A stretch of 64,000 nucleotides of DNA from an uncultured Microthrixaceae bacterium (GTDB lineage: Bacteria > Actinomycetota > Acidimicrobiia > Acidimicrobiales > VFJN01). The translations under genes and the position numbers were made by a program. The stretch is taken from contig CAVQWY010000003.1 in NCBI GenBank assembly GCA_963717755.1, positions 96,169 through 160,168 on the forward strand, written 5' to 3'. Shown piece by piece: positions 5,379 to 27,474 of this stretch; within the stretch, counting starts at the first letter, position 1; every line of letters starts with the position of its first letter. The notes under the pieces are model-generated. The model searched no databases. It was given only the letters and a program-made list of their open reading frames with translations, and was not told the DNA's origin.

Positions 5379-5390
5379 GGGGATCAGACG

Positions 5391-7020: not shown

Positions 7021-7058
7021 CGGGCTGCGAACCTACGCAACGCGCGAGGCTGCGAGCC

Positions 7059-7862: not shown

Positions 7863-7867
7863 CCCAG

Positions 7868-9042: not shown

Positions 9043-9046
9043 GTCA

Positions 9047-9072
9047 GCGAGGCCGGAGGCGACCGGCTTCGC
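9047..9072. terminator. GC-rich hairpin between convergent genes
   Basis: gcgaggccgg-aggcga-ccggcttcgc forms a 10-bp stem with one G:U pair. There is no T tract. Confidence 0.4.
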
Positions 9073-9137
9073 CGTGTCGCCGGGAGGCACTTGCAGAGGG
9101 CGCCCCGAGCGAAGCGATGACCGAAGCAAGCAGCCAC

Positions 9138-9747
9138 TCAGCTCGCGGCGACGATGCCGCGGCTGCGAAGGCCCGTGAGGCCCTCCCACAGCACCGCGAA
9201 GAGCACGTCGGTGGCCCGCTCCAGCCCCGAGTCGCGGTAGTCGACCCAGTCCTGGGCGCCGGCTTCGAGGAGACCCACCACGCCCCGCGCGACGAGTCGG
9301 GCGGTCGGGCCTGCGCCCCACGCGGCGGCGATCCGCTCGATGCGCTCGCGGCGTGCCGCCTGGATGGCCGGGTGCTGGAGCGACGCCGGCCGCGGCCATG
9401 ACGTTCCACGCCGCCTCGTTGTCGCGCGCGAACACCAAGTAGCGGCGGATGATGCGCCGCAGCCGCACCTCGTCGGGCAAGCGGTCGTCGAGCGCCCGCC
9501 CGAGCTCGCGGTCGAGCTGCTCGAGGTTGTGGAGGTACACGGCGGCGATGAGCCCGCCGCGATCGCCGAAGTACGCGTACACGAGCGACCGCGACACGCC
9601 GCCGGCGTCGGCGACCTCCTCGAAGCTCACGTCGCTGGGGTCGCGTCCGCGGAAGACACCCGACGCCGCCTCCACCAGGAGCGCGCGTCGCGTCACAGGG
9701 TCGAGCCGCAGGTGGGACTTGGACTCCTTGATCGGACGCTCGCTCAT
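9138..9747 (-). CDS. TetR family transcriptional regulator, one frame change
   Basis: The N-terminal HTH (SFEEVADAGGVSRSLVYAYFGDRGG) is in ORF 8902..9747. The C-terminus (..QHPAIQAARRERIERIAAAWGAGPTARLV..LTGLRSRGIVAAS) is read in another frame and ends at TGA 9138-9140. The frame change is near 9380. Confidence 0.7.
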
Positions 9748-9780
9748 GGGACCCCCTCGGGGCAGAGCCGATCGGATGGC

Positions 9781-10819
9781 TCAGGGGGCGGCGGTGCCGA
9801 CCTCGACTGGGTGCTCCCCGGGGGCGTTGCCGCCCAGCAGGGGGAAGTGGCACGCGACGTAGTGCTCCTCGCCGACCTCGCGCACCTGTGGCTCCTCGTT
9901 CGCGCAGCGCTCCTGGGCGAGCGGGCATCGGGTACGGAACCGGCAGCCGGCGGGCGGGTCGATCGGTGACGGGAGGTCACCCGTGAGCAGGCCGCTCTGC
10001 ACCGGCGGGACGGTGGGGTCCGGCACCGGGATCGAGCGGAGCAGCGCGGCCGTGTACGGGTGGGCAGGCGTGGCGTAGAGGTCGTCAGGCGAGCCCACCT
10101 CGCAGATCTTCCCGAGGTACATCACGGCGACGCGGTCGCTGATGTTCTTCACCACCGCGAGGTCGTGGGCGATGAAGATGAGGGTGAGTCCGTAGCGGGC
10201 CTTCATGTCCTCGAGCAGGTTCAGGATCTGCGCCTGCACGGACACGTCGAGGGCGGACACGGGCTCGTCGCAGATGATCACCTTCGGCTCGAGCACGAGC
10301 GACCGGGCGATGGAGATGCGCTGGCACTGGCCACCGGAGAACTGGTGGGGGCGCTTCTCGGCCGCCACGTCGGGGTCGAGGCCGACCGCGTCGAGCACCT
10401 CGGACACGCGGGCCTTCTGCTCGGCGTCCGTGCCGCGCTTCCAGATCCGCAGCGGCTCGGCGACGATGTCCTTCACCTTGCGGCGGGGGTTCAGCGACGA
10501 GATCGGGTCCTGGAAGATGAACTGCAGGCGGGTGCGGACGGCGCGCAACTCCTGACCGCTCAGCGACGCCAGGTCCGCTCCCTCGAACAGCACTCGGCCG
10601 CTGGTGGGCGGGGGGAGCTGCATGATCGCGCGGCCGGTGGTGGACTTGCCGCAGCCGGACTCGCCGACGAGGCCGAGGGTCTCGCCCTCGCGCACGTCGA
10701 GGCTGATGCCCGGACACCGCGTGCACGACACCACCGGAGGTCTTGAACTCCACCACCAGGTCCTCGATGCGCAGCAGCACATCGTCGTCGCGCAGGTGGG
10801 CGGTCCCGGTGCCGGCCAT
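9781..10819 (-). CDS. Dpp/Opp-type peptide ABC transporter, ATP-binding protein (F-type), one frame change
   Basis: ORF 9781..10782 plus the N-terminus [25 protein letters not shown] in the frame of ORF 10085..10819. Motifs: [17 protein letters not shown]. The frame change is near 10710 (extra G in a G run). Its ATG overlaps the upstream stop (TGATG). Confidence 0.75.
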
Positions 10820-11987
10820 CAGGCTGCACCTCCGGCGTCGGCGTCGACGAGCGCCGTGGTCTCGACCGCCGCCGCGGCAGCCGAGTCACCGGTGACGGCG
10901 GCCTCGGCGGCCGGCACGTGGTGGGCCAGGTTGCGCTCGAGCGCCTCGCGGCCGGCGTCGGTGCCGACGGGGAACCAGCACCGGAACACGTGGCCCGGCG
11001 TCTCTGCCTCCACCAGCGGCGGCTGCTCGGCGTGGCACTTCGGCTGCGCGTACGGGCAGCGCGGCGCGAACCGGCAGCCCGACGGCGGGTTGATGAGGTC
11101 GGGGGGGCGCCCGCCGATGATCTGCAGGCGCGTGTGGCTCGGGTCCTCCAGCTTCGGGATCGACTTGAGGAGCGCCTCGGTGTACGGCATGCGCACGTTG
11201 GCGAACAGCGTGCGGGTGGGGGCCTTCTCCACGATCTGGCCCGGCGTACATCACCGCGATCTCGTCGGTGCGCCCGGCGACCACGCCGAGGTCGTGGGTG
11301 ACCAGGACCATGGCCATGTGGCGGTCGCGCTGCTGCTGGTTGAGCAGGTTCAGGATCTGCGCCTGCACCGTGACGTCGAGCGCGGTGGTGGGCTCGTCGG
11401 CGAAGAGGAGCTTGGGGCCGCACGCCAGGGCGATGGCGATCGTGACGCGCTGGCGCATGCCGCCGGACAGCTCGTGCGGGTACTGCGCGATCCGCCGCTT
11501 CGGGTCGGGGATGCCGACGGAGTTGAGGAGCTGGAGCGCCTGCTCGTTGGCCTCGTCCTTCGGGATGTCGAGGTGGTAGCGCAGCCCCTCGGTGATCTGG
11601 CGCCCGATCTTCATCACCGGGTTCAGCGAGGTCATCGGGTCCTGGAACACCATCGCCATCTCCGTGCCCCACAGCGCCCGGAGGCTGTCGTTCTTGGCGC
11701 CGACGAGCTCTTGGCCGTTGTAGGTGGCCGAGCCGCTGCGGACGACGTTGCGCGACGTGAGCAGCCCCATGATCGAGCGGGCCAGCACCGTCTTGCCCGA
11801 GCCCGACTCGCCGACGATGCCCGAGCGTCTTGCCGCGCTCGAGGCTGAACGTGACGCCGTCGACGGCCTTGACGAGGCCGCCAGGCGTGTCGAAGTGGGT
11901 CTTGAAGTCGTCGACGACGAGCAGCGGCCCTTCCAGCGGGGTGGGAGCGGTGAGGACGCGGCGACCGCTCCTCGTGGTGTCGCTCAA
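10819..11987 (-). pseudogene. Dpp/Opp-type peptide ABC transporter, ATP-binding protein (D-type), two frame changes
   Basis: Pieces lie in ORFs 10819..11232 and 10886..11788, with the N-terminus in the frame of ORF 10560..12317. Motifs: GESGSGKT (reconstructed), LSGGMRQR. The TTG start at 11987 overlaps the upstream TGA. Frame changes are near 11241 and 11821, both in C/G runs. Confidence 0.7.
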
Positions 11988-12907
11988 AGTGCTGCGTCCT
12001 TCACGTCGAAGGCGGCGCGGAACCGGTCGCCGAGGAAGTTCACCGCGAGGACGGTGAGGAACATCATCGCCGGCGGGGATCATCGACGTGTGGGCGATGT
12101 CCTCCTGCTGGAGCGCCCGCCGACCGCCGTTGATCATGCCGCCCCAGCTGATCGTCTCCTGCGACGTGAGGCCGAGGAAGGCGAGGCTGCCCTCCGCCAC
12201 GATCGCGATGGCGACGACGAGGAGCCCGAAGGCGAGCAGGGGAAGGATGACGTTGGGGAGGATCTCCCGAATGAGGATCCGCCACCGACTCGCGCCGGCC
12301 GCCTCGGCGGCCAGCACGAACTCACGTCTGCGAGTAGGTCAGCGTGGTGGCGCGCGCGATCCGCGCGAAGGCGGGGATGGACACCAGCGAGATCCCGAGC
12401 ACCACGTTCTTCAGGTCGGCGCCGAGGAAGGCGACGATGGCGATCAGGAGGATGAGCGCAGGGAAGGCGAGGAAGATGTCGACGACGGCCATGAGCAGCG
12501 CCTCGACGCGGCCCCGCAGGAAGCCCGGCCAGCAGCCCGATCGAGCCGCCCGACGACCATCCCGATGGCGAGCACGCCGAAGGCGACGACGAGGGACACG
12601 CGACCACCCCAGATGAGCCGCGAGAAGATGTCGTAGCCGTTCTGCTCGGTGCCGAGGAGGTGGCCACCCGTGCCCGGAGTGGCGTTGGCTGGCACCGATG
12701 TAGTCGGCGATGTCGGGTTCGTCGATCGGCAGCCACGGAGCCAGCAGCGCGCTGCCGGTGACCAGAACCAGCCACACCACGCTGATCCAGCCGGCCAGGC
12801 CCAGCACGCCGCCGCGCTTGCGCTTCCGGCCCCCGGTCCCGCTCGGACTGGAGCGCCGCGGGCGTGGCGATGTCTGCCGAGCCGACGGTGGCGATGACGT
12901 CGCTCAT
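11984..12907 (-). pseudogene. Dpp/Opp-type ABC permease (C-type), about 6 frame changes
   Basis: Recognisable permease segments are scattered over three frames: MSDVIATVGS.., GVLGLAGWISVVWLV.., GHLLGTEQNGYDIFSRLIWG.., FLRGRVEALLMAVVDIFLAFP.., REFVLAAEAAGASRWRILIREILPN.., FLGDRFRAAFDVKDAAL. Frame changes are near 12825, 12685, 12545, 12525, 12327 and 12068. Confidence 0.65.
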
Positions 12908-13882
12908 CAGGCACCTGCCCTTCGCACGCGGGGATCGAGGACGGAGTACAGGAGGTCGGTGATGAAGTTCACCAGCACGAAGGCCGTCGGCGATCATCAG
13001 CACCACGCCCTGCACCACGAGGTACTCGCGCTGGAGGATCGACTCGCACGGCGAGCTCGCCCGACCCCGGGGATCCCGAAGAACGTCTCGACGATCACGG
13101 ACCCACCGATGAGCGCGCCGAAGTTGATGCCGAACACGGTGAGCAGCGAGAACGACGACGGGCGCAGCGCATGGCGCAACAGGATGTGCCACGTCGGGAG
13201 GCCCTTGGAGCGCGCCATCAGCACGAAGTCCTCCTGGAGGGTGGCGATCAGGTCGCTGCGGAGCAGGCGCGTGTAGACGGCGGTGAGGCCGGCGGCGAGC
13301 ACCGCCACCGGCAGGGCCACGGATTTGAGGTTCTCGCTGATGCCCCCCGGTCCGGTGATGCGGTCGTACCCGACGGCCGGGAACCATCCCGAGCTGGATC
13401 GAGAACAGGTAGACGAGGAACACCGCCAAGGCGAAGCTCGGGAGGGAGATCAGCCCGAAGGCGCCCGCGGTGATGGCCTTGTCGGCGCGCGAGTTGGCTC
13501 GGTAGGCGCTGAAGAGCGCCAGCGGGATGGAGATGAGCAGGGAGATCAGCCTGCGCCATGATCATGAGCTGCAGAGAGGCAGGCAGCCGCTGGGCCAGCG
13601 ACGTCTTGGTGGGGATGTCGTGCGAGTACGACTTGCCGAGGTCGAACTCGGTGACGACGCCGCCGATGTAGCTCCCGTACTGCTCGCAGAACGGGCTTGT
13701 CGAGGCCGAGGTCCTTCTCCAGCGCGGCCTCGCGACTCGGGGTTGGAGGCCTCCGAGCCGAGGATCGTGTTGACGGGGCTGCCCGGGAGCAGCTTCGTGA
13801 GCATGAAGGTGAGGAAGCTCACGATCAGCACCACGACCAGCAGCTTCATGAGCCGCTGGAGCACAACGCGTGCGATGGTCAT
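12907..13882 (-). pseudogene. Dpp/Opp-type ABC permease (B-type), about 6 frame changes
   Basis: Segments: MTIARVVLQRLMKLLVVVLIVSFLTFML.., CEQYGSYIGGVVTEFDLGKSYS.., LISLLISIPLALFSAYRANS.., WFPAVGYDRITGPGG.., LMARSKGLPTWHILLRHALRPS.., AFVLVNFITDLLYSVLDPRVR. These were joined across frames near 13735, 13700, 13545, 13385, 13060 and 12975. Confidence 0.65.
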
Positions 13883-13932
13883 GTCAGTTGGATCCTCGGC
13901 CCGGAGGCGTCAGGTTCTGACGGCCGGAGCCG

Positions 13933-15573
13933 TCAGCCCACGGCGTAGAGCAGCCCGGGCTTGATGGCACCCAGCGAGTTCGGCTCGCCTTCCGGCGGCG
14001 GGCCGACGCGGGTCGTCGTCGTAGACGTTGCCGAACAGGTCGTAGAGCGTGGTGATCAGCGGCACCTCCTCGGCCGGTGATCTCCTGGACCTCGAAGTAC
14101 TTCTCCTTGCGGTCGTCGAAGTCGTCCGTCTGGCGGGCCTCGTCGAGCAGCTTGTCCACGTCGGGGTTGCTGTAGAAGACGAGGTTGCCGGCGTCGTCGG
14201 TGGTGAGACCGGGCCGGATCGCATCGGGCTCGATGAAGTGGCTGCTGCGGAAGCAGCCGGCCTCGTAGTCGCCGCCCTTGGAGAAGATGCGGTTCACGTA
14301 GGCGCCCTGCTCCTGGCTCTCCAGCTCGATGTTCATGCCCGACCTCTTCGCCCATCCTGCTTGATGATGTTCAGGATCAGGTCGGCCTCAGGGGTCGGGA
14401 TGCACACGAGGGTGAAGTCCAGGCCACCGAGCTCATCGACGAGCTCCCGCGCCTTGTCGGGGTCGTACTTCGGCGTCTGGGCGTCAGGGTTGTAGTACGC
14501 CGAGTCGAGCGCGAAGCCGGAGTAGCTCGGCACGCGCACGCCGTCGTAGGCCCGCTCGTTGATGAGGTCCTTGTCGATCGCGTACGCCAGCGCCTGGCGG
14601 GCGCGGACGTCGTCGAACGGCGGCTTGGACGTTGTTGAACAGGATGATCGTGGAGCTCGAGCCGCTGATCTTCTGGGCGGCGAAGCCGGCGTCCTCGGCC
14701 TGCTTCACGGTCTTCGGAGTCGGCGGTCTGGAAGATGTCGATGTCACCGGTCTCGAGGGCGGCGACGCGCTGGCCGCTGTCCGGCGATCGGCACGATGGT
14801 CAGCTTGTCGAGGTACGGCAGCTGCGTGCCGTCCTCGTCGATGCCCCAGTAGTCGGGGTTGGCCGTGAGGACGGTGCGCTCACCGGCGACGAACTCGTCG
14901 AGGACGAACGGGCCGGTGCCGACGCCGTCGGTCTTCAGGTTGATGCCACCGGCGACCGCGGTGGGCGACTCGATGTAGCCGCTGGAGCCGGCGAGCGTGT
15001 CGGGGAAGGCCACGCTCGGGGTGCCGAGGTGGAAGACGACCGTGAGGCCCTCGGGGCCGTCAGGCATGTCCATCGACTCGATGATGGCGATGGTCGTCTG
15101 GCACGGGCACGCCGTGGCCGGGTCCTTGCAGGCGGTCGAAGTGCTTCACCACGGCGTCGGCGTTGAGCGGGGTGTCGTCGTGGAACGTGACGCCCTCGCG
15201 GAGCGTGATCGTGTACTCGGTGAGGTCGTCGTTGCCTTCGATGCGACTCGGCGAGGAAGGGCTCGATCTTGCCGTCCACGTAGGTGGTGAGCGGGTCGTA
15301 GATGCCGAGGGTGATCACCTTGTCGGACGGCTGCGCGGCCTCGCCGGGGGCGAGCGTGGCCACGTCGGACTCGGTGCCGAAGATGAGCTCGCCGCCCTTG
15401 ACGGGGTTGCGCTCCGGACCTTCGCCGGTGGTCGTGGTCTCGCCGTTGTCAGTGCCGCCGTCGTCGCCGGCGTTCGGCTCGTCGTCACCGCCGCACGCGG
15501 CGGCGACCAGGACCAGACCCAGGAACACCGCGATGATCCGATACCACGGTACGTGGCCGTGCTTGTCCTTCAA
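13933..15573 (-). pseudogene. Family-5 peptide/nickel substrate-binding lipoprotein (DppA/OppA-like), about 8-9 frame changes
   Basis: Signal peptide plus lipobox ..IIAVFLGLVLVAAAC. The TTG at 15573 is preceded by GGGGGA, and an alternative TTG is at 15609. SBP segments lie in ORFs 14935..15609, 14744..15073, 14484..14747, 14333..14539, 13884..14336 and 13910..14224. Stop codon at 13933-13935. Confidence 0.65.
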
Positions 15574-15656
15574 GATGTCCCCCTGGCGGCGTAGGAGCTG
15601 GGGCGGCAACCTGAGCGGTCGCCCTGCCGGTGACGCCGGTCACACCGGTCATCGGG

Positions 15657-15685
15657 ACCGTAGGAGCGTGTTGTCACCCTGTCAA
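15657..15685 (-). promoter_or_regulatory. Candidate sigma-70-type promoter of the peptide ABC operon
   Basis: On the minus strand: TTGACA (15685-15680), a 17-nt spacer, then TACGGT (15662-15657). It lies about 45-85 nt upstream of the candidate starts. Confidence 0.35.
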
Positions 15686-15702
15686 CAACTCCGGCGACGA
15701 TT

Positions 15703-15720
15703 CCTGACCCGCCGGTCAGG
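15703..15720. terminator. Hairpin downstream of the lytic transglycosylase gene
   Basis: cctgacc-cgcc-ggtcagg forms a 7-bp perfect stem. Confidence 0.35.
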
Positions 15721-15770
15721 CCGATCCCGGAGGAATGCCGCGAACCGCTCGACCCGGGAAGGCGAACGGT

Positions 15771-17088
15771 TCAATCCTGCGGTTCGGGCACCTGGAGGGA
15801 GTGCTCGTAGAGCCGCGCGTAGCCCAGCACCGAGTCCACGTAGGGCACGGAGTGGTTGTAGGAGAAGTAGGCGGCCCGCAGCCCGGGGTCCGCATCGAGG
15901 CCGCTGCTCGACGTGCAGAGGTACTTGGCCGCCGCCAGGGTGGCGTCGTACATGTTGAACGGCGAGCTGTCGCCGTCCTCGTTGCCGTCGGCCTGGTAGC
16001 GCCGCCAGGTCTGCGGGATGAACTGCATCGGCCCGACGGCCCGGTCGAAGGCGGCGTCGCCGTCGAGGGCACCGCCGTCGGAGTCGCCGACCACCTGGGT
16101 CTCGTTGGTGCCGTTCAGCTGGATGCCGATGATGCGACGGCTGGTGTCGCCGTTGGGCTCGAGGGTGGTCCCGCCGTAGGTGCCGTGACGTCCCTCGACG
16201 CGGGAGATGCCCGCCAGGCCCCACCAGCGCACCCGGCAGCCAGGGCGGTCGCCCGGAGACCGCCTCGGCGGCCCGGTAGTAGGCGTCGAGGGCCACCAGC
16301 GGGAACTCCACGCCGTCGACCCGGGCGAGCACCCGCGCCTCCTCGTAGGCCACCCGCTCGGTGGCGACGTCGCCGGCCTTCGCCACCTCGCCCTCGACGG
16401 CCGCGGGGCGGGCGGCACCGAGCTCGCTCATCGCGTCACGGGCCGCCTGGAGGTCCTCGACGGCGGCCTCGGCCCGGTCGTCGGCGGCGCCGATCCGCTC
16501 TCGGTAGGCAGCTCGCTCGGTGAGGAGCACGTCCATGGACATGGCCGAGAGCACCTGCGCGGCGGTCGCCCTCGTTGATGGCAGGGGTCTCGGAGGCGAT
16601 GGCGGTGTTGACCCGGTCGTCGTCGTCTCCGGTGACGAAGGCCTCGACCGCCAGCTCCTGGATGGCCGCCTCGACGTCGCGGAGGCGCGCGGTGAGCCCG
16701 TGCGACGCGCGCCTCGGCCGACACGCGGGTGGCCTCGAGGGCGGCGACGCGAGCGTGCAGCACGGTGAGGGTGTGGTCGAGGTCGGCGCGCTGGGCCTGC
16801 GCGGTGCCATGGGTCGTGAACACCTCGGCGTACTGCTCCGCGGCGCGCTCGAAGGCGGGGCTGTCGACGGGCACCTGGGCCAGCTCGATGGACGTGCTGG
16901 GCAGACCCGGGAGGTCGGGCGACGGCGGCGCCAGGACGGCGGGCAGCGCGGCGGCCTCCGGCGCGGTGGACGGGTTCTCGGCCTGCGCCGGCGCGACGGT
17001 GGCGACCAAGCCGCCGGCCAAGGTGAGAGCGACGAGGCCGCATCCGGCGCGGGCGCGTCGAGGACGAGGTGGTGGGTCGGGGTCGCAT
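15771..17088 (-). pseudogene. Secreted lytic transglycosylase (MltB/SLT_2-like) with coiled-coil N-region, about 4 frame changes
   Basis: The C-terminal domain in ORF 15771..16418 carries AVGPMQFIPQTWRRY and LAAAKYLC. The N-terminal signal MRPRPTTSSSTRPR/GCGLVALTLAGGLVATVAPAQA and the coiled-coil pieces are in other frames. Frame changes are near 17055, 16720, 16560 and 16250. Confidence 0.6.
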
Positions 17089-17193
17089 CAGCAGGAGGTG
17101 GTCGTGCGCCGGCCGAGCGGGGCGGCCAGGCAATGCGAGGGTGCAGTGTGCCCCGAACGGGCGCGCGAGGGAAGCCGCTGGCATGCTGGCGCC

Positions 17194-18013
17194 ATGTCCG
17201 ACCGGGTATCCATCTCCATGGACAACGGCATCGCCGACGTCCGACTGAACCGTCCCGACAAGCTGAACGCCCTGGACCAGGCCATGTTCCAGGGCATCGT
17301 GGACGCCGGCGAGGGCCTCAAGGGCGACCCCGACGTGCGGGTGGTGGTGCTCTCCGGGGAGGGCCGGGGGTTCTGCGCCGGCCTCGACTTCGGCAGCTTC
17401 CAGGCCATGGCCGACGGTCCTGCCGCCGAGGAGCCGGCCAAGGCGGACCGATCGCTCGGCGCCGATCGGCGACACCGGCGGCCGCATCACGCACCTCGGG
17501 CAGCAGGCGGCATGGGTCTGGCAGGAGCTCGAGGTGCCCGTGATCGCGGCGCTCCACGGCGCCGCCCTCGGCGGCGGCCTGCAGATCGCGCTGGGCGCCG
17601 ACATCCGGATCGTGGCCCCCGACGCCAAGCTCTCGGTGCTGGAAGCGCGGTGGGGTCTGATCCCGGACATGACGGGCACGGTGATCCTGCCGAAGCTCGT
17701 CGGCCTCGACGTCGCCAAGGACCTCACGTTCACCGGTCGCATGGTGTCGGGCGAGGAGGCGGTGGCGTTGGGCCTCGCCACCCGGCTCGCCGACGACCCG
17801 CACGCCGCCGCCCTCGAGCTGGCCGCCGACCTCGCCACGAAGAGCCCGGACGCGCTGCGCGAGGGCAAGCGCCTGCTCAACCTCTCCGGCACCCGTCCCC
17901 TCGCCGAGCAGCTGCTCGACGAGCGGGTGACCATGGGATCCCTCATCGGGAGCCCGAACCAGATCGAGGCCACCATGGCCTACTTCGAGAAGCGGTCGCC
18001 GAACTTCACCTGA
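17194..18013 (+). CDS. Enoyl-CoA hydratase/isomerase (crotonase), one frame change
   Basis: MSDRVSISMDNGIADVRLNRPDKLNAL..GEGRGFCAGLD is in the frame of ORF 16729..18195. It continues in ORF 17534..18013 (VIAALHGAALGGGLQIALGADIRI). The frame change is near 17460. Confidence 0.7.
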
Positions 18014-18195
18014 TGCCTCCGAAGTCCCCGCCGCGCGAGTGGCTTCTCATCGGCCTGGCGTGCGGGCTCGTCGCCGCGCTCGCCGTGAAGTCGGCCCTGT
18101 TCGTGCTGCTCGGGTCGGTGAAGGTGCTCGTGGTGGTCGGTGCGGTGGCGGTCGCCTGGCTCGTGCTCCGCGGCCCCCGCGACGGGACCCGCTGA
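18013..18195 (+). CDS. Small (60 aa) two-TM membrane protein, hypothetical
   Basis: Its ATG overlaps the crotonase TGA (TGATG). The tail of ORF 16729..18195 is hydrophobic. Confidence 0.35.
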   Translation: MPPKSPPREWLLIGLACGLVAALAVKSALFVLLGSVKVLVVVGAVAVAWLVLRGPRDGTR

Positions 18196-18203
18196 CCCCA
18201 CAG

Positions 18204-18252
18204 GTTCTGGCCCGGGAACCCCGCGCGCGGCACCAGGAGTCCGGGCCAGAAC
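18204..18252. repeat. Long-loop inverted repeat at a convergent junction
   Basis: gttctggcccgg..25 nt..ccgggccagaac, with 12-nt perfect arms. The arms extend to 18 nt with 2 mismatches. Confidence 0.5.
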
Positions 18253-18259
18253 TGGTGGG

Positions 18260-19853
18260 TCAGACGCCGATGGCGGCGCCAGATCCGGCGCGGGCGTCGG
18301 AGGCGCCGGCATAGGTGCCGTCCGGCGTGACCGTGATGACGTGGGCGTGGCCGACGTTGCCGCCGGCGGGCAGGTGGTGCACGGAGTGGCCGCGCGCCTC
18401 GAGACCGGGCGCCCAGTCCGGGGGCGCGCCGGCTTCGAGACCGACGCGGTCGGGGCCGCCACCGGCCCACGTGTCGAACCCCGTGCCGTGCGTGCGCCAG
18501 GAACCAGCCGCGGCGCGCTGATGGCGCGGCCCGGCGGCTGCTGGTGGTGCAGCAGGCGGGCGAGGAGCTGCAGCAGCACCTGCGGCTGGCTGTCGCCGCC
18601 CATCGTCCCGAGGACGGCGGCGAGGGCGCCGTCCGGGTGGGTGACGAGGAGCGGTGACAGCGTGTGGGGTGGGCGTCGCCGGGGGCCAGCTCCGCCGGGT
18701 GGCCGGGCTCGAGCGAGAACCCGATGCCGCGGTTGTGGAGGAAGATCCCCGTGCCGGGGATCACGACGTGGCACCCCCAACCCGACGCGTTCGACTGGAT
18801 GAGGGACACGCCGACGCCGTCGGCGTCCGCGGTGCAGAGGTGGATCGTCCCACCGGGCGCGGCTGGTCCGGGGGGAGCGGTCCGGCGGTCGGGATCGATG
18901 GCCTCGCGGCGGGGGAGCAGCCGGCCAGGGTCGAGCAGGGCGGCGCCATCGGCCGCGTCGTGGAGGACGGCCGGCCGGTCGTGACCGGCCCAGCGCGCCG
19001 CCTCGACGAGGAGGTGAGCCCAGGCGCTGTCGTCGGGGTCGTCGGGGAGGGGCAGCCCTTCGGCGATCCACGCCGCGGCCGGCGCGAGGTAGCCCTGCGA
19101 CGGCGGGGGCACGGTCCAGATGCGGTGCCCCCACACGTCGAGGGAGATCGGGTCGACCCAGTCGGCCTGCGACCGGGCCAGGTCGTCAGCGAGGTACAGG
19201 CCGCCGCCGACCGCGAGGAGGGCGGCCCCGACGTCGCCCTCGTAGAACGCGCGCCGCCCGCCCTCGGCGATGGCGGCCAGGGCCGCGGCCACGCCGGGGC
19301 GTCGCACCAGCTGGCCGGCGGCGAGACCACCGGGCCGCCGGTAGTCGTCGGCGCCCGGGACGTCGGCGATCAGCGTGCTCGCCAGCGCCATCAGCGGCGC
19401 GGCCGCGAACCCGTCGGCCGCGCACCGGCGCGCCGGCTCGAGCACGTCGTCGCAGCGGGAGCCGACCGTGGCGCTCGTGCAGCGCGCACCAGCCGTCGAC
19501 GCAGCCGGGCACCGGAGCACTCCGGCAGGTCGTCGCGGAACGGCATCGTGGTGTGGCCCTCGTCGCGGAGCCGGGCCGGGTCGCTGCCGCTCGCCGGCGA
19601 GCCCGGCCGCGCACAGCGCGTCGGGTGCCTCGCCGGGCCGGTGGACGAGCGCGAAGAGGTCGCCGCCCATGCCGCACATGTGCTGCGTGGTGACGGCGAG
19701 CACCGCGCTGGTGGCGATGGCGGCGTCGGCGGCCGAGCCACCGGCGCGAAGGATCGCGGCGCCGGCGCTCGACGCCACGTGGTCGACGGAGCAGACCATG
19801 CCCCCGGCGGCGTGGAGCGTGGGGCAGCGCGGCGGCCAGGGCACCGACCGCAA
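18260..19853 (-). pseudogene. ggt: Gamma-glutamyltransferase family protein, about 5 frame changes
   Basis: ORF 18006..19853 carries AGGMVCSVDHVASSAGAAILRAGGSAADAAIA, GMGGDLF and GGTIHLCTADADG. Other segments lie in ORFs 19391..19741, 19186..19677 and 17980..19134. The C-terminus ..GASDARAGSGAAIGV ends at 18260. An alternative ATG start is at 19799. Confidence 0.7.
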
Positions 19854-19867
19854 CCTACGCGGATGCG

Positions 19868-20729
19868 TCAGTCGTCGATCAGGGTGGATCGCGGCCTGCC
19901 AGGCCGCCTCGACCCGGTCGAGGCGCTTCGGTGGCGGGGCGGCGGATGCGGGCGGCGACGCCCGGTGACCAGCGCGTTGGCGAGGGCCAGCGTGCCGACG
20001 TGGCTGTCGAAGGGGCCGGCGCCCTCGGCGGCGACGACGAAGGTGACCTCCGCGTGGCGGGCGAGCGGCGAGAGCCGGCGAGTCGGTGAGGCGCGATCAC
20101 GACCCCGCCGGCCGCGGTCGGTGGCCGCGGCGGCGTCGAGCCACCCAGCGCTCGTAGCGGCGCAGGTCGATGGCCAGCGAGCACGTCGCCCGGCCGCGGT
20201 GTGGGCCAGCCGGCTGGTGACCGTGACCGGGGAGCCGGTGACCCGGTCGCACGTCCGGGCGCAGCAGGTCGAGGTCGTCGGCCAGGAGCGCGCCGATGCC
20301 GTCCTGCGCGGAGCCGGCCAGCACGCGGACGCGGCGCGCTCGCGTCGGCGAGGAGGTCGACGGCTCGCTCGAAGTCGGCCCGGTCGACGGCGTCGAGGGT
20401 GCGGTGGACGTTGTCGGCCTCGCGGGCGGCGGTGGCGGCCGAGGACGTCGCCGACGCCGGTCTCGCGGATGCGCTGCGGTGGCCGGGCGGAGGTGCTGGT
20501 CGATGCTCGGCCCGGACCTCGGCCTGGAGACCCGACCCACCCCTCGTAGCCGAGCCGGTCGGCCAGCCGCACGACGGTGGCGCCGCTCGTGCGGGCCCGC
20601 CGGCCGAGCTCGGCCACCGTGGCGAAGGCCGCCACCGCCGGGTCGGCCAGCACGACCTCCGCCACGCGCCGCTCGGCGGGAGGCAGGGCGGCGGCGTGGG
20701 CGTCGATGCGGGTGCGCCAGGTCGGGCAT
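19868..20729 (-). pseudogene. RpiR/MurR family regulator (HTH + SIS), 10 or more frame changes
   Basis: HTH block RRVAEVVLADPAVAAFATVAELGRRARTSGATVVRLADRLGYEGW. SIS segments (RVRVLAGSAQDGIGALLADDL, DVLLAIDLRRYERWV, FVVAAEGAGPFDSHVGTLALANALV) alternate among all three frames. Confidence 0.6.
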
Positions 20730-20759
20730 GCAACAGATGGTACGGTCTGGCACCGAGTT

Positions 20760-20775
20760 TGCAACAGGCATTGCA
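20760..20775. promoter_or_regulatory. Candidate operator palindrome in the rpiR / aldh divergent region
   Basis: The palindrome is tgcaa-caggca-ttgca. The 8-mer tgcaacag also occurs at 20729-20736, 31 nt away. Confidence 0.2.
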
Positions 20776-20798
20776 CGTCCGCAAGGGAGGCCCCGCCG

Positions 20799-22251
20799 AT
20801 GGCCACGTTCCGCTCGACCAACCCGGCTCGGCCCGGCCGAGGTCGTCATCGAGCTGCCGCAGCACACCGCCGCCGACGTCGACGTCGCCGTCCAGAAGGC
20901 CGCCGACGCGCAGCGAGCGTGGGCGCCAGCGCCCGGTCCCGGAGCGAGCCGAGGCCATCGCCGCCGTCGGGCGCCATCCTGACCGCCCGCAAGGCCGAGC
21001 TGGCCGAGCTCGTCAGCCGGGAGGCGGGCAAGATCCGCATCGAGGGCGGCGGCGAGGTGCAGGAGGCCATCGACATGGCGGCCTTCGTGGCCGGCCAGGG
21101 GCGCTCGGCGTGGGGCGACGTCGTGCCCTCGGAGATGCACGACAAGCTGGCCTGGACCACCCGCATCCCGGTCGGGGTGGTCGGGATGATCACGCCGTGG
21201 AACTTCCCGATGGCCATCCCGAGCTGGAAGATCTTCCCGGCGCTGCTCGCCGGCAACGGCGTGGTGATGAAGCCGTCCGAGCTGGCGCCCGCGTGCGGCG
21301 TGGCGTTCGTCGACGCGTGCGTCGAGGCGGGAATCCCGGCCGACCTCGTGCAGGTCGTGCACGGCGGGCCTGAGCCGGCCGCCGCCCTCGCCACCCATCC
21401 CGGCGTGGGCGCGGTGTCCTTCACCGGGTCCGTGCCCACCGGGCGCAAGGTCGCGGCCGCGGCCATGGAGGTCGGCCCGAAGCTGGTGAGCCTCGAGCTC
21501 GGCGGCAAGAACGCGATGGTCGTGCTCGACGACGCCGACCTCGACCTCGTGCTCGACGGCGCCCTGTTCGGTGCCTTCGGCACCTCCGGCCAGCGCTGCA
21601 CCTCGACCTCGCGGCTGATCCTGCAGAAGGGCATCGCCAGCGCGGTGGTCGACCGCCTCGTCGAGCGCGCCGAGGCGCTCGTGCTCGGCGACCCGCTCGA
21701 TCCCACCACCGACGTCGGCCCGGTGATCACCGCCGAGTCGGCCACGCGGATCGTCGCCATGGTCGAGGCCGCGGTGGCCGAAGGGCGCCACGGCCGCCAC
21801 CGGCGGTCAGCTCCGCGCAGGACGTGGCGGGGTGCGAGGGCGGCACCTTCGTCACCCCCACGATCCTCACCGGGGTGAAGCCGTCGCACACCGTCGCCCG
21901 CGAAGAGGTGTTCGGCCCGGTGCTGTCGGTGATCGAGGTCGACGACCTCGACGAGGCCGATCGCCGTCGTGAACTCCGTCGAGTTCGGGCTCAGCGCCGC
22001 CGATCTACACCCGCGACCTCAACGCCGCCCTCCGCGCCGTGCACGCCATCGACACCGGCATCACCTACGTGAACGCCCCCACCATCGGCGCCGAGATCCC
22101 GCTGCCGTTCGGCGGCACCAAGCACACCGGCAACGGCTTCCGCGAGGCGGGCGCGCGCGGCATCGAGCAGTTCAGCCAGGTGAAGACGGTGTACGTCGAC
22201 TACTCCGGCCGGCTCCAGCGGGCCCAGATCGACAACCGGGAGGACGCGTGA
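20799..22251 (+). pseudogene. NAD(P)-dependent aldehyde dehydrogenase, about 8 frame changes
   Basis: GGGAGG lies 8 nt upstream of ATG 20799. Motifs: ITPWNFPMAIPSWK, ELGGKNAMVV, FGTSGQRCTS. The C-terminal pieces are in ORFs 21824..22072 and 22039..22251. Confidence 0.7.
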
Positions 22252-23539
22252 TGACCGCGGTCGACACCACCGCCACCGCCGCCTGGCTCGCTCGCTACCA
22301 CGACGTCGGTGGCGCCGGTGCTGCCGTCGTACTTCGACGTGATCGCCGATCGGGCCGAGGGCTCGTGGGTGTGGGACGTCGAGGGGCGCCGCTACCTCGA
22401 CCTCGGTTCCGGGCATCGCGGTCACCAACACCGGGCACCGCCACCCGCGCGTGGTCGAGGCGGTGCACGCAGCAGGTCGACCGGCTGCTCCACACCTCGG
22501 TCGTGCTGAAGCACCAGCCGTACATCGAGGCGGCCGAGGCCATCGCCGGGCTGGCGCCGTTCCTCGACCACCCGAAGGTGTTCCTCTGCAACAGCGGCGC
22601 CGAGGCCGTCGACGGCGCCATCAAGCTGGCCCGGCGCACCACCGGCAAGCCCGGGATCATCGCGTTCCGGCGCGGCTTCCACGGCCGCACGATGGGCGCC
22701 ACCACGCTCACCACCGCCAAGGCGTCCTACCAGGAGGGCTACGCGCCGCTGCTCCCGTGGCGTGCACATCGCGCCGTACTGCATCCCGGGCGTCACGAGC
22801 CCGCTACGCCAGCGACGCCGACGCGGTCGAGGCTGCGCTGGGGGAGCTCGATCGGATGCTCGCCCGCGAGGCGGCTCCGGAGACGGTGGCGGCGATGGTG
22901 GTCGAGCCGGTGCTCGGCGAGGGCGGCTACATCGTGCCGCCCGTCGCGTGGCTCGCGGGGTTGCGCGAGCGCTGCGACGAGCACGGCATCCTGCTCGTGT
23001 TCGACGAGGTGCAGTGCGGCTTCGGTCGCACCGGGCGCCCGTTCGCGGCCGAGACGTTCGGCGTGCGCCCCGACGTGGTCCTCTTCGCCAAGGGCGTGGC
23101 CTCCGGCCTGCCGCTCGCCGGGATCATGGCGGGCGCCGAGCTGATGGACCGCTGGCCGAACGGCACCCACGGCTCCACCTTCGGCGGCAACCCGGTGTCG
23201 TGCGCGGCCGCCGTCGCCACCATCGCCGTGCTCGAGGACGAGGGCCTCTACGACCGGGCCGTCGCAGCTCGGGGAGCGCGCCCAAGCCCATCTCCGCGCG
23301 CTCGATCGCGGACGCCATCGTCGAGGTGCGCGGCATCGGCGCCATGATCGGCGTCGAGCTGCGCGACAAGGCCACCGCCGAGGCGCGTGCAGCAGCGCTG
23401 CCTCGACGACGGGGTGATCGTCCTCACCTGCGGCCCGGAGGGCAACGTCCTGCGCCTCATCCCGCCGCTGACGATGACCGACGACGAGCTCGACCACGGC
23501 CTCGCCATCCTGAGCACCGCCCTCCTGACCCACTCCTGA
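22251..23539 (+). pseudogene. Class-III (GabT-like) aminotransferase, about 9 frame changes
   Basis: Its ATG overlaps the aldh TGA. Motifs: [60 protein letters not shown]. The C-terminus ..LRLIPPLTMTDDELDHGLAILSTALLTHS ends at TGA 23537-23539. Confidence 0.7.
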
Positions 23540-23597
23540 CAACGTCTGTGGTCGAAAACGCTCGGATAGCGAGCGAAATCGACCGCAGACGTTGTCA
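23537..23597. repeat. Two-tier palindromic element, copy 2
   Basis: The structure is TGAcaacgtctgtggtcga-aaa-cgctcg-gatag-cgagcg-aaa-tcgaccgcagacgttgTCA. The outermost triplets are the stop codons of the two convergent genes. Confidence 0.75.
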
Positions 23598-25108
23598 GGT
23601 CCAGTCGCGGAGGACCTGCTTCTGGAGCTTGCCGGTGCCGCCCTTCGGCAGCTCGTCGAGGATGACGACCTGGCGCGGCGCCTTGAACGGCGGCCAGCCG
23701 GCCGCGGACCCAAGCGATGAGCTCCGCCTCGTCCGCCTCTGCGCCCGGCACGAGGCTCACGAAGCCGCGCGGCACCTCGCCCCACCGTTCGTCGGCCATG
23801 GCCGACCACCGCGGCTTCCCGCACGGCCGGGTGCGCCTCGAGGGCCTGCTCCACCTCCACCGACGCGACGTTCTCACCGCCGGAGACGATGAGGTCCTTG
23901 GCTCGGTCGACGATCGTGATGTAGCCGTCGGCGTCGACGACGGCGAGGTCGCCGGTGCGGAGCCATCCGTCGCGCAGGACCTCGGCGGTCGCCTCGGGCG
24001 CGTCGAGGTAGCCGATCATCACGTGGTTGGAGCGGGCGCAGATCTCGCCGACGTGGTCGCCGTCCCACGGCACCTCGATGTCGCCATGGCCAAGCACGCG
24101 CACGTCGGTGCCGAGGATCGGCAGGCCGGTGGTGGCGCGCTGCGTCAGCGGTGTACGGGAGCCCTGGCTTCGGCAGGCTGCGGGTGAGCGTGGGGGACGA
24201 CTCCGTCATCCCGTAGCCGCAGATCACCGGGCACCCGAACGCCGCCTCCAGCTCGGCGAGCAGCGCGGGGCTCGACGCCGAGCCCCCCACGGAGATCTGC
24301 GCGCACGCTGGACAGGTCGCGGTCCGCCCGCGACGGGATGGTCGAGCACGAGACGCGCCATCGCGGGCACGAGGAAGAGCCGCGTGACGCCGTGCGCCTC
24401 GACCAGCCGGAGGACCTCGCCGGCGTCGAAGCGGGGGAGCAGCACGTGCACGCCGCCCAGGCCGGTGACGAAGTGCGGCGTGCCCCACCCGTTGACGTGG
24501 AAGAGCGGGATCGTGTGGAGGAACACGTCGTCGCCCGTCAGGCCCATGGTCGAGCGCGCTGTGGACGGCGTGCAGGTAGAGGCCGCGATGGCTGAGCGAG
24601 CGCGCCCTTGGGCGTGCCGGTGGAGCCCGACGTGTAGAAGAGCTCGGCGGGTGCCCGCTCGTCGACCGGTCGGGGTGACCGGGCGGCGTGGCCGGCTGGC
24701 TCGGCGAGCAGCGCCTCGTAGGCGTCGTCGAGCACGATCGTGCGGACGCCGTGGCCCGGGTCGGGCTGGGCCGGGTGCCGGAGCAGCACGACGGCTCCGC
24801 TGTCGTCGAGGATCGTGCGCAGCTCGGCGGCGCGCCAGGCGGATGTTGAGGGGGAGCAGCACCCCACCGGCCAGCAGCACGCCGTAGTACGCCTCCAGCA
24901 GCTCGTGGGTGTTGCCGCAGAGCCACGCCACCACGTCCCCCGGTCGCACGCCGACGTCGCGCTGCAAGGCATGGGCCAGCCGGTCGCAACGATCGCCGAG
25001 CTCGGCCGTAGGTCCACCGCTGGTCGCCCTCGATCACGCCCGCGCGCGATCGGTGAAGAGCCGGCGAGCCCGGGCCAGGAGGTCGAGCGGGGTGAGGGGC
25101 AGCTCCAT
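23595..25108 (-). pseudogene. Acyl-CoA synthetase (AMP-binding), about 10 frame changes
   Basis: The N-terminus is MELPLTPLDLLARARRLFTDR. Motifs: FYTSGSTGTPKG, GYGMTESSP, TGDLAVVDADGYITIVDRAKD, GTGKLQK. Segments lie in ORFs 23874..25037, 24224..24967, 24538..25017, 22793..24103 and 23248..23877. Confidence 0.7.
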
Positions 25109-25879
25109 CAGACCCAGCGCGCCGCGCTCGACGAGCAGGTCCTTCAGCACCTGCGGGCGGTCGGTCATGATCCCGTCGACGCCGAGGTCGAGCAGCCGCG
25201 CCATCTCGGCGCGGTCATCGATCGTCCAGACGTGCACCTGCACGCCCGAAGCGGTGGGCGGTGTCGACGAAGCGCCGGTCCACGAGCGGGAGGCGTCCCT
25301 GGTGCGGCGGCACCTGCGCACACGGCGGAGAGGATCCCGCCGCTCCCAGGCCCGCGTCGTGACGCCGACGAGGAGCCGGGCGACCTCGCGGGGACCCATC
25401 GACGTGCACAGCCCGGGACCGGTGAGGACCTTCACCTTCGCGATGCGCTTGTCGCTGAACGCGCCGACGCACACCCGGTCGACGCTCCCGGTGCGGAGCA
25501 GCGCCGCCGCCAGCGGTTCGGCCACCGCGTCCTGCTTCGGGTCGATGTTGATGCGCACGTCGGGCCAGGCTCCGAGCAGGTCCTCGAGCAACGGGATCGG
25601 CTCGCGACCGTCCACGCGGGCGCGCTGCACGTCCGACCACGGGAGCTCCGCGATGAGGCCGGTGCGGTCGGTGACGCGGTCGAGTCGGTCATCGTGGAAC
25701 GCCACCAGGACGCCGTCGGCCGTGACGTGCGCGTCGGTCTCGAGGTACCGGTAGCCGAGGCCGACCGCGTGCTCGAAGGCAGGCATCGTGTTCTCGGGCG
25801 CCTCGCTGGCCCCGCCGCGGTGGGCGAAGGCGAGGGGCCCCGGCCAGTCCAGGAACGGGTACGCGGCGTTGGCGGGCAT
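25108..25879 (-). pseudogene. Glycerophosphodiester phosphodiesterase (GDPD), about 3 frame changes
   Basis: Motifs: FAHRGGASEAPENT, ETDAHVTADGVLVAFHD. There is an internal compensated pair near 25375 and 25245. The true stop is probably TGA 25108-25110 after a change near 25105, because the track ORF runs on into the next gene. Confidence 0.6.
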
Positions 25880-25885
25880 CCGGAC

Positions 25886-27442
25886 CTAGATCGAACGGCC
25901 GGCGTCGGCCCAGTACTCGTCCTTGAGCAGCCGCTTGTAGAGCTTGCCGGTGGGGTGCCGCGGGAGCTCCGGGCGGAAGTCGACGGACCGCGGGCACTTG
26001 ATGTCGGCGAGGTGCTCCTTGCAGTAGGCGATGAGCTCCTGCGCCAGCGCGGGACCGGCGTCGTCCATCGACGCCGGCTCCACGACCGCCTTCACCTCCT
26101 CGCCGAAGTCGTCGTTGGGCACGCCGAAGACCGCCACGTCGTTCACCTTGGGGTGCATGGCGAGCACGTTCTCGGCCTCCTGCGGGTACACGTTCACGCC
26201 GCCGGTGATGATCATGTAGGCCTTGCGATCCGTGAGGTACAGGTACCCGTCGTCGTCGAGGTAGCCGACGTCCCCGAGCGTGCTCCACCCGCGGCCCTTC
26301 GGGTCGCGTGAGCTCGCCGTCTTCTCGGCGTCGTTGTGGTACTCGAACGTCGCCGCCAGATCGCCCTCGAAGTACACGGTGCCCGACTCGCCGATGGGCG
26401 CCTCCTCGCCGTCCTCCCCGACGATGTGGACGACGCCGAGGATCGCCTTGCCCACCGTGCCCTTGTGGGCCAGCCAGTCGACGCTGTTGCAGTACACGAA
26501 GCCGTTGCCCTCGGTGCCGGCGTAGTACTCGTGGATGATCGGGCCGAACCAGTCGATGATCTGCGCCTTCACCTCAGCCGGGCACGGCGCGGCGGCGTGG
26601 ACGACGACCTGCAGCGATGACAGGTCGTACTTGGCGCGCACCTCCGGCGGGAGCTTGAGCATCCGGATGAACATCGTCGGCACGACCTGGCTGAAGGTGA
26701 TCTGGTGCTCCTCGACGAGGGCGAGGTACTGCTCCGGATCGAACTGCTCCATCACGACGACGGTGCCCCCGAGCCGCTGCGTGGCGCGGCAGAAGCGCAG
26801 CGGGGCGGCGTGGTACAGCGGGGCGGGGGAGAGGTACCGGGTGGAGTCGTCCGCGCTGAAGAGGAGCTGCGCCAGCCCCGTGACGCCGTCGGCGCCGAGC
26901 CCGAGCGGCGCGCCGGGAAGCGGCACCTTCACGCCCTTGGGCCGCCCGGTGGTGCCCGAGCTGTAGAGCATGTCCTGGCCCTCGACCCGATCCTCGTCGA
27001 GGGGCGCCGGAGGTTGCTCGGCGAGGGTGGCCTCATAGGACTCGAAGCCGTCGATGACCCCGTCGAGCATCAGGCGCACCTTCACCCGCGGCATCTGGTC
27101 GGCGAGCTCGGCGGCCTGGCTCGCCTTGTGGTTGGACGTCACGAACGCCTGCGCCCCACAGTCGTCGATGATGTACGCCATCTCCTCGGTGGTGAGCCGG
27201 GAGCTCATGGCGGTGTAGTAGAGCCCCGCGTAGTGGGCGCCCCAGATCGCGGGGAGGAAGTGGGCGCTGTTCTCGAGGCAGAGCGCCACGTGGTCGCCGG
27301 GCTGCAGGCCGGCGGCGCGGAAGACGCGCGAGAGCTGGTTGGCCTCGGCGTCCAGCTGGGCGTAGGTGACGATCTCGCCGCTGGTGGACATGATGACCGC
27401 GGGGCGGTCCGGGGCAGAGGCGGCGAAGTCACCGGGGAACAT
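25886..27442 (-). CDS. Acyl-CoA synthetase / long-chain fatty-acid-CoA ligase
   Basis: Intact 518-aa ORF with YSSGTTGRPKG, EYYAGTEG and GDVGYLDDDGYLYLTDRK. Confidence 0.85.
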   Translation of the reverse strand: MFPGDFAASAPDRPAVIMSTSGEIVTYAQLDAEANQLSRVFRAAGLQPGDHVALCLENSAHFLPAIWGAHYAGLYYTAMSSRLTTEEMAYIIDDCGAQAFVTSNHKASQAAELADQMPRVKVRLMLDGVIDGFESYEATLAEQPPAPLDEDRVEGQDMLYSSGTTGRPKGVKVPLPGAPLGLGADGVTGLAQLLFSADDSTRYLSPAPLYHAAPLRFCRATQRLGGTVVVMEQFDPEQYLALVEEHQITFSQVVPTMFIRMLKLPPEVRAKYDLSSLQVVVHAAAPCPAEVKAQIIDWFGPIIHEYYAGTEGNGFVYCNSVDWLAHKGTVGKAILGVVHIVGEDGEEAPIGESGTVYFEGDLAATFEYHNDAEKTASSRDPKGRGWSTLGDVGYLDDDGYLYLTDRKAYMIITGGVNVYPQEAENVLAMHPKVNDVAVFGVPNDDFGEEVKAVVEPASMDDAGPALAQELIAYCKEHLADIKCPRSVDFRPELPRHPTGKLYKRLLKDEYWADAGRSI

Positions 27443-27474
27443 GGCGGCAAGGTACTCCTGGATACCGTGACCCG

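Follow-up and report, generated by a model that had tools for sequence, protein, structure and literature searches.

Frame breaks clustered in 16 kb of a soil bacterium contig are very probably an assembly or consensus artefact

Introduction

Consensus sequences built from Nanopore reads alone carry single-base indels that fragment gene calls and that short-read evidence removes (Sereika et al. 2022, PMC9262707; Sanderson et al. 2024, PMC11170131). The classic error profile consists of deletions in homopolymers, spread genome-wide, and the indel errors are more severe in metagenome bins whose coverage is modest (PMC9262707, PMC11170131). Consensus errors of another kind come from collapsed haplotypes in mixed-strain long-read assemblies. 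Many adjacent genes with disrupted frames are found also in genuine pseudogene clusters, in which stops, deletions, insertions and IS elements occur together and conservation is relaxed. Bacterial pseudogenes are subject to a deletional bias.

We analysed a stretch of 64,000 nucleotides, hereafter the window, from the metagenome-assembled genome (MAG) of a high-GC Acidimicrobiales/Microthrixaceae-like soil bacterium, in which one block of adjacent genes is broken by frame changes. The block resembles Nanopore-only consensus errors in that its single-base indels fragment the gene calls and are lacking in short-read contigs, but it departs from their classic profile, with 95% insertions, 73% of sites outside runs, 60% creating a CpG and a ~25-fold concentration in one 16-kb patch. 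As for collapsed-haplotype errors, the patch coincides with at least three haplotypes and its flanks are monomorphic, whereas an excess of CpG-forming cases would not be expected if both alleles were simply kept. Many adjacent genes have disrupted frames, as in a pseudogene cluster, but none of the other marks of genuine decay are present and, unlike in a real cluster, independent DNA of the population does not carry the lesions. We conclude, with a probability of about 0.93-0.95, that the block arose as an error of assembly or consensus and is not biological.

Results

Extent and density of the frame breaks

Frameshift-aware alignment against orthologous proteins from short-read MAG loci, with the locus L002 as reference and L032 used for ggt, identified 76 breaks of the reading frame, which extend from 9383 to 25369 over 14 adjacent genes, with a spacing of about 210 nt per break. 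Of these breaks, 72 were +1 insertions and 4 were of the -1/+2 type, and the intergenic spacers contained at least one further extra base, at 17067. The error-dense block (9383..25369, no strand assigned) was delimited by this alignment together with Viterbi segmentation and short-read contigs. The initial annotation had described a block at 9380-25400 dense in frame changes and flanked by clean sequence, with about 70-80 switches or one per 200-250 nt. The alignment bears this description out. The remaining 48 kb held about 9 breaks, and the numbers given for the single genes agreed within 1 for nearly every gene. In a conservative tally, 5 breaks outside the block had homologue or read support, so that 76 of 81 breaks fell within 25% of the window (binomial p = 1e-39).

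When the window was segmented in full by a Viterbi procedure based on codon usage, 59 same-strand frame switches were obtained at 9380-25400 (36.8 per 10 kb) compared to 3.2 per 10 kb at 1-9379 and 6.7 per 10 kb at 25401-64000. The switches outside the block were mostly normal gene boundaries. The same segmentation recovered, within a few nucleotides, the junctions called in the initial annotation, which it placed among others at 10710, 11241, 11823 and 12323 inside the block and at 1074, 6892, 27777, 29735, 40917 and 42791 outside.

The breaks thinned out gradually at both edges, with 4 between 9.4 and 11.9 kb and 5-6 between 25.4 and 30 kb, and sparse insertions and deletions occurred also elsewhere in the window (1066, 29131). 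This fading and this low background would fit an artefact arising in the absence of any strain mixture, by which near-raw consensus errors survive in a patch of very low long-read depth or in an unpolished one. One error per ~210 nt is on the order of a few-read consensus, and Nanopore-only MAGs below about 40x retain frameshift-causing indels (PMC9262707). Raw-like errors, however, should bring deletions and substitutions as well, and the block contained insertions and deletions at 72:4.

Genes of the block

The TetR-family regulator (9143..9756, minus strand), with Pfam matches TetR_N and TetR_C_46, exhibited 1 break, an extra base at 9383, and short-read contigs lacked one base at 9383/9385. 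Six further genes follow on the minus strand: an OppF-like ABC ATPase (9786..10819) with 1 break (~10711) and 89% amino acid identity to its L002 orthologue; an OppD-like ABC ATPase (10824..11972) with 2 breaks (11243, 11823), both extra bases being absent from short-read contigs; an ABC permease of the BPD_transp_1 family (11986..12913) with 6 breaks (12071, 12331, 12530, 12552, ~12699, ~12841), those at 12331, 12530 and 12552 being absent from short-read contigs; a second permease with BPD_transp_1 and its N-terminal domain (12924..13876), also with 6 breaks (~12988, ~13059, 13384, 13546, ~13695, ~13729), supported by alignment, Pfam and short-read contigs; a family-5 solute-binding lipoprotein (13935..15582; Pfam SBP_bac_5 1-338/368, short-read contigs) with 9 breaks (~14011, 14076, ~14340, ~14356, ~14630, ~14709, ~14785, 15129, 15245); and a secreted protein, called a lytic transglycosylase in the initial annotation (15788..17036), with 3 breaks placed by alignment (16251, 16558, ~16700), for which the Pfam search gave no match at 1e-5.

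The enoyl-CoA hydratase (crotonase) gene (17194..18010, plus strand) had 1 break, at 17461, seen by alignment and in short-read contigs. The gamma-glutamyltranspeptidase gene ggt (18277..19820, minus strand) had 5 breaks, two of the -1/+2 type (~18505, ~18685) and three of the +1 type (~19449, ~19525, ~19592), on which four independent references agreed, and its product matched Pfam G_glu_transpept over 2-510/512. The highest break density, about 1 per 59 nt, was found in the gene of the RpiR-family regulator (19966..20790, minus strand; HTH_6 and SIS domains), with 14 breaks by alignment and Pfam. On the plus strand lie the aldehyde dehydrogenase gene aldh (20796..22246), with 7 breaks (20836, 20925, 20968, 21786, 21816, ~21959, ~22002) by alignment, Pfam and short-read contigs, and a class-III aminotransferase gene (22251..23525), with 8 breaks by alignment and Pfam. 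The last two genes are on the minus strand and code for an AMP-binding acyl-CoA synthetase (23597..25111), with 10 breaks, among them 24144, 24598, 24833 and 25003 (alignment, Pfam, short-read contigs), and for a glycerophosphodiester phosphodiesterase (25117..25879), with 3 breaks (25244, 25326, 25369; alignment, short-read contigs), which marks the right edge of the block.

Read-through proteins and selective constraint

Once the frames were joined, no in-frame stop was present in 5217 read-through codons, as had been claimed from the letters, compared to 8.4 stops expected at 5 substitutions per indel (P = 2e-4 for zero). The read-through proteins covered Pfam models from end to end (Aldedh 8-461/461, Aminotran_3 11-403/403, AMP-binding 8-384/384), and these full-length matches, in agreement with the orthologue alignments, show that the joined pieces belong to single proteins. 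Their amino acid identity to the L002 orthologues was 0.57-0.89, which is the level seen in the related loci L003 and L010 when the same genes are compared. For genes that are intact in L003, the identities to L002 in the window and in L003 were respectively 0.84 and 0.81 for aldh, 0.81 and 0.76 for the aminotransferase and 0.71 and 0.67 for rpiR. Thus, with identities to L002 at least equal to those of L003 and full-length Pfam matches, the selective constraint on the block proteins is not relaxed. In the block genes, deletions did not exceed 2 nt, IS elements were absent and indels were not larger than ortholog-level differences.

These data bear on two readings in which the insertions would be real. 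Genuine, very recent decay would have inactivated the 14 neighbouring genes by a local burst of +1 insertions confined to this strain. The zero stops, the lack of longer deletions and of IS elements, and the conserved proteins argue against it, and the insertion-only spectrum is opposite to the deletional bias of bacterial pseudogenes. Alternatively, real insertions could be tolerated by recoding, through large-scale programmed +1/-1 frameshifting or transcriptional slippage, and indeed full-length proteins are readable across every break with all functional motifs kept.

The extra bases in short-read contigs

Short-read contigs from soil metagenomes (runs X1, X3, X4, X11 and X12), often 100% identical to the flanks, were compared with the window; being from other runs than the source assembly, they strictly show what is lacking in near-identical populations and not in the sequenced DNA itself. 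Of the 76 predicted breaks, 27 were covered by these contigs, and the extra base was absent at 27/27, with exactly one base missing each time. All 22 contigs that spanned at least one predicted break had at least that many gaps, and 23 of the 24 that spanned none were gap-free. Two contigs, at 12224-12382 and 16544-16695, each aligned with 0 mismatches and 1 gap, so that the window differs from them by the extra base alone. Against the same runs, the stretch 9-28 kb had 40 indel places, and the control stretches 28-47, 47-64 and 1-9 kb had 4, 1 and 1, respectively.

The initial annotation had favoured a local problem of consensus or assembly over old pseudogenes and had kept recent decay open from the sequence alone. 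The first view is supported by the 27/27 absent bases, by the 72/76 breaks of +1 type and by the lack of stops, and on the second the independent short-read data argue strongly for an artefact. As the contigs were assembled from other samples, some room is left for decay in this strain only, but the tested bases are missing in near-identical populations, even in contigs otherwise identical to the window, and we consider such decay very unlikely. The absence from short-read DNA speaks also against recoding. With 0-1 mismatches per 150 nt, same-haplotype contigs differ by the extra base only, which is not what is expected of a low-depth consensus.

Searches for the contig itself gave no match. 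The JGI metagenome contigs scanned for an independently assembled, nearly identical version of the block yielded nothing above 76% amino acid identity, neither the source reads nor an exact copy of the contig were found in public runs, of which the best had 18% of words in common and among which, as listed, there was no Nanopore run, and no record of the exact FadD protein of the window was found.

Sequence context of the extra bases

With few exceptions, the extra bases in the block were single C or G nucleotides. The initial annotation had noted junctions that looked like GG read as GGG. This idea holds in part. Of the 30 exactly placed extra bases, 8 lie in runs of at least 2, whereas bases taken at random from the block would do so in 43% of cases; the other 22 (73%) were single bases outside runs, and a homopolymer origin was thus rejected as a general rule. 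With 72 insertions versus 4 deletions and 8/30 sites in runs, the signature does not correspond to the classic Nanopore homopolymer errors. A lone C or G making a CpG accounted for 18/30 exactly placed extra bases (60%), and the unambiguous cases, counted by hand from the trinucleotide table, comprised 8 CpG-forming versus 1 GpC-forming. The codon-slot counts of 8/5/4 were not different from uniform. Recoding would call for a slippery or homopolymeric context, and neither this context nor a preferred codon phase was observed.

A SNP was present within 2 nt at 4 of 15 extra-base sites versus roughly 0.9 expected, a suggestive excess from a hand reading of the lists. Each insertion might be a SNP of which both alleles were retained, an idea for which the codon-slot counts had been taken, but such a simple allele merge would not predict the asymmetry of CpG over GpC.

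Strain variability of the block

Comparison with the short-read contigs revealed 194 SNP places in 9-28 kb and 53 and 56 in controls, the block being 3-4 times more polymorphic than the controls. At 22.47-22.72 kb at least three haplotypes were seen; haplotypes in the block were about 3-5% apart and the flanks were nearly monomorphic. Wobble positions held 66% of the block mismatches, which are therefore mainly natural variants, and their origin as random substitution errors was rejected. A low-depth patch would contain such errors, and it gives no account of the overlap between the block and the higher polymorphism; we regard it as a possible but somewhat improbable cause.

The strain variability of the block makes a strain-specific state conceivable. 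The extra bases would then truly be in the DNA of this strain, as a local, insertion-only and CpG-creating burst in a strain-variable region that has just inactivated 14 genes, too recently for substitutions or stops, a scenario to which we give hardly any weight.

Related loci and assembly type

The loci of the closest relatives, L003 and L010, come from Nanopore MAGs that share one sample, assembled by Flye with one round of Medaka (PMC12313526). Both carried insertion-dominated patches, with insertions to deletions of 65:12 and 51:15, respectively. The window shared 4 break positions with L003 versus 4.7 expected and 3 with L010 versus 3.6 expected, so that the errors are neither inherited nor fixed by the local sequence, and both origins were rejected. 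Recoding sites should be conserved in relatives, and with this last argument we hold recoding to be next to impossible. Cross-mapping between the L003 and L010 populations is an unlikely source of their patches, these populations being 16-21% diverged.

Among 20-kb high-GC loci, the nine most fragmented were all from long-read 'contig_' MAGs, and no fragmentation was found in short-read MAGs or isolates of this length. The lesions thus track the error-prone assembly type and not the lineage. Decay does not explain like patches at unrelated positions in other long-read MAGs and in no short-read assembly.

Discussion

Taken as an artefact, the block can be described by the following scheme. The contig appears to behave like a long-read, Nanopore-type consensus. 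In a strain-variable stretch where several haplotypes coexist, read support would be split or mixed, and the consensus or polishing step working on such reads may emit extra bases. The consensus at 9.4-25.4 kb would in this way carry about 76 spurious ones, shifting the frame about every 210 nt. Among the causes named in the initial annotation, strain mixture fits best, given the 3-4-fold higher polymorphism found in the block than in the controls on comparison with short-read contigs, and we put the odds that it caused the patch at about even. A CpG-creating, non-homopolymer insertion signature cannot be derived from a known algorithmic step, which counts against this explanation.

The finding is of use for database quality control. 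Otherwise clean contigs in long-read MAG catalogues can hide patches in which a spurious insertion occurs every ~200 nt and from which annotation pipelines would report dozens of fragments or pseudogenes. The Microflora Danica long-read catalogue was subjected to a coding-density check (PMC12313526). In DNA of 72% GC the wrong frames stay open, so that such patches hardly lower the coding density and a check of this type would probably not flag them. An insertion-only, CpG-creating signature that is not homopolymer-linked and occurs at high strain diversity may also concern polisher developers.

For the organism, the block provides no evidence of gene decay. The extra bases are absent from short-read data of the same soil population, and the 14 genes, the whole peptide-uptake operon included, are therefore almost certainly intact. 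The block can be read as an intact TetR regulator, a five-gene peptide/oligopeptide ABC importer, ggt, an RpiR-controlled pair of aldh and aminotransferase genes, an acyl-CoA synthetase and others.

A dense block of frame breaks between clean flanks

Both a GC3 frame plot and a codon-usage Viterbi segmentation showed frame runs of 40-800 nt at about 9.4-25.4 kb, compared with 1-4 kb elsewhere in the window. Same-strand frame switches reached 36.8 per 10 kb in this block against 3.2 and 6.7 outside, where they were mostly gene boundaries. The Viterbi junctions, including 10710, 11241, 11823 and 12323 within the block and 1074, 6892, 27777, 29735, 40917 and 42791 outside, matched those placed in the initial annotation. 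The breaks were then counted with a purpose-written protein-to-DNA aligner permitting frame changes, with the intact orthologues of L002, our main short-read MAG reference, as queries; the related loci L032, L007, L034, L044 and L001 served as references for ggt and the right flank. The block genes contained 76 breaks: one in tetR, one and two in the ABC ATPases, six in each permease, nine in the binding protein, three in the lytic-transglycosylase-like gene, one in the crotonase, five in ggt, 14 in rpiR, seven in aldh, eight in the aminotransferase, ten in the acyl-CoA synthetase and three in GDPD, so that the earlier per-gene estimates were essentially correct. By the same alignment, the flanking genes at 8009-9037, 25906-27445 and 31.2-35.9 kb had zero breaks, and those at 27.5-30.1 kb had one apiece or a compensating pair. 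The proposed block of dense frame changes between clean flanks is thus confirmed.

Isolated within-gene breaks were found outside the block at 1066/1074, 6892, 27775, 29081/29131, 29566, 29739, 40913 and 42791. The genes concerned are a large gene at 3-2275 (plus strand), an acyl-CoA synthetase at 5394-7029, three genes at 27490-28238, 28295-29492 and 29570-30141, a LOG-like gene at 40772-41792 and an FbiC-like FO synthase at 42378-44760.

Lesion type and protein integrity

Of the 76 breaks in the block, 72 are single-nucleotide insertions in the window; the other four belong to the -1/+2 type. The read-through proteins contained no stop in 5217 codons, in agreement with the initial annotation, and spanned their Pfam models end to end; the joined segments are thus parts of single proteins. 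Neutral decay with even 5 substitutions per indel would predict 8.4 stops (P of none = 2e-4), and genuine recent decay of these genes is very improbable. The amino acid identity of the block proteins to L002 equals that of L003 and L010, two related long-read loci, and for genes intact in L003 the identity of the window to L002 exceeds that of L003.

Comparison with independent short-read DNA

Short-read data for the same population came from four to five soil metagenomes, many of whose contigs match the flanks of the block at 100% identity across 150-640 nt. At predicted breaks, the short-read contigs lacked exactly one base, for example at 9383, 11243, 11823, 12331, 12530, 12552, 13384, 13546, 14076, 15129, 15245, 16251, 16558, 17461, 20836, 20925, 20968, 21786 and 21816 and, in the right part, at 24144, 24598, 24833, 25003, 25244, 25326 and 25369. 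All 27 of the 76 breaks spanned by a short-read contig were contradicted, which supports the local consensus problem favoured in the initial annotation. Contigs over at least one predicted break had at least as many gaps as spanned breaks (22/22), whereas 23 of 24 contigs over no predicted break were gap-free; for the contigs at 12224-12382 and 16544-16695, the extra base was the sole difference from the window. With the same four runs (run X3 in place of X11 for 1-9 kb) and identical settings, indel places numbered 40 at 9-28 kb, 4 at 28-47 kb, 1 at 47-64 kb and 1 at 1-9 kb.

The one gapped contig among the 24 over no predicted break lacked an A that is extra in the window at 17067. This site is in the intergenic spacer separating the lytic-transglycosylase-like gene from the crotonase, so errors also strike non-coding DNA and their true count exceeds that of the frame breaks. 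Three single bases within 29 nt (24675, 24679 and 24703) were also missing from short-read contigs; these omissions jointly preserve the frame and are invisible to frame analysis, and may represent either three more errors or a genuine codon difference, the contig being 95% alike.

Outside the block, indel places at 1066, 29081/29131 and 40913 coincided with previously noted junctions, deletions and insertions both being present. Short-read contigs contradicted the breaks at 1066 (where the window lacks a C), 29081, 29131, 29566 and 40913; their coverage excludes 6892 and 42791.

Related loci and other assemblies

The window has a GC content of 72%. Its nearest relatives in the genome collection are soil Acidimicrobiales/Microthrixaceae MAGs, syntenic across 5.9-28 kb with 78-85% nucleotide identity; three are short-read assemblies (L002, L001 and L032), while L003 and L010 share a single source sample in the Microflora Danica long-read catalogue, which was produced with Nanopore R10.4.1, Flye and one Medaka round (PMC12313526). 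With the same aligner, L003 showed 65 (+1) and 12 (-1/+2) breaks and L010 51 and 15, patchy and with no stops; the patches lie at 1-9600 and 14300-15800 in L003 and at 400-8000 plus scattered sites in L010. Break positions common to the window and L003 (4 vs 4.7 expected) or L010 (3 vs 3.6) did not exceed chance; the breaks are therefore neither inherited nor set by local sequence. Insertion-dominated patches of the same kind were observed in L008, L013, L043, L005, L009, L015 and L063; the patch-bearing relatives are public long-read MAG contigs, some serving as species representatives. When the Viterbi fragmentation measure was applied to 59 high-GC loci, the nine most fragmented ~20-kb loci were all long-read 'contig_' MAGs, and no ~20-kb short-read MAG or isolate among them was fragmented. 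Nanopore-only MAGs below ~40x are known to keep frameshift-causing indels (PMC9262707).

Two further observations concern the relatives. The window has its ggt gene (18006-19853, minus strand) flanked by crotonase and rpiR, as do L001, L032, L007, L034 and L044, whereas L002, L003 and L010 lack it at this position, a presence/absence difference between close relatives. Divergence from L003 was 12.5% mismatches at 9137-18205 (tetR, opp operon, lytic-transglycosylase-like gene and crotonase) versus 19-20% at 19899-28077 (right half and flank); stronger constraint or inter-lineage exchange could account for the closeness of the left half.

Signature and possible cause of the extra bases

Exact positions could be assigned to 30 extra bases, 27 of them C or G. 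Only 8 belonged to a run of the same base (length at least two), compared with an expectation of 43% for any block base; the earlier idea of GG read as GGG thus holds at a minority of sites and fails as a general rule. In 18 of the 30 (22% expected, p = 9e-6) the extra base was a single C followed by G or a single G preceded by C and so created a CpG, the trinucleotides being gCg, cGc, cGa and tCg; unambiguous cases were CpG-forming in 8 and GpC-forming in 1. Neither strand asymmetry nor codon-phase preference was detected among the extra bases. This signature differs from the homopolymer deletions that are classic for Nanopore data (PMC9262707; PMC11170131).

Comparison with the same short-read runs gave 194 SNP places in the block and 53 and 56 in the two 17-19 kb controls. 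Wobble positions accounted for 66% of the listed SNP places in the block, so these are mainly natural variants, not errors. At 22.47-22.72 kb the contigs resolve a minimum of three haplotypes that differ by about 5%, none of them identical to the window. High strain diversity thus marks the block, whereas its flanks are nearly monomorphic. Such a haplotype mixture would split or mix the read support, from which a consensus or polishing step might emit extra bases. We give strain mixture roughly an even chance of being the cause; simple lack of depth, or a patch left unpolished, is a serious alternative, but fits the insertion-only spectrum and the missing substitution errors less well.

Whichever the cause, we consider the breaks of the block (9380-25400) to be an artefact and not real biology, with a probability of about 0.95, and its 14 genes are best regarded as intact.
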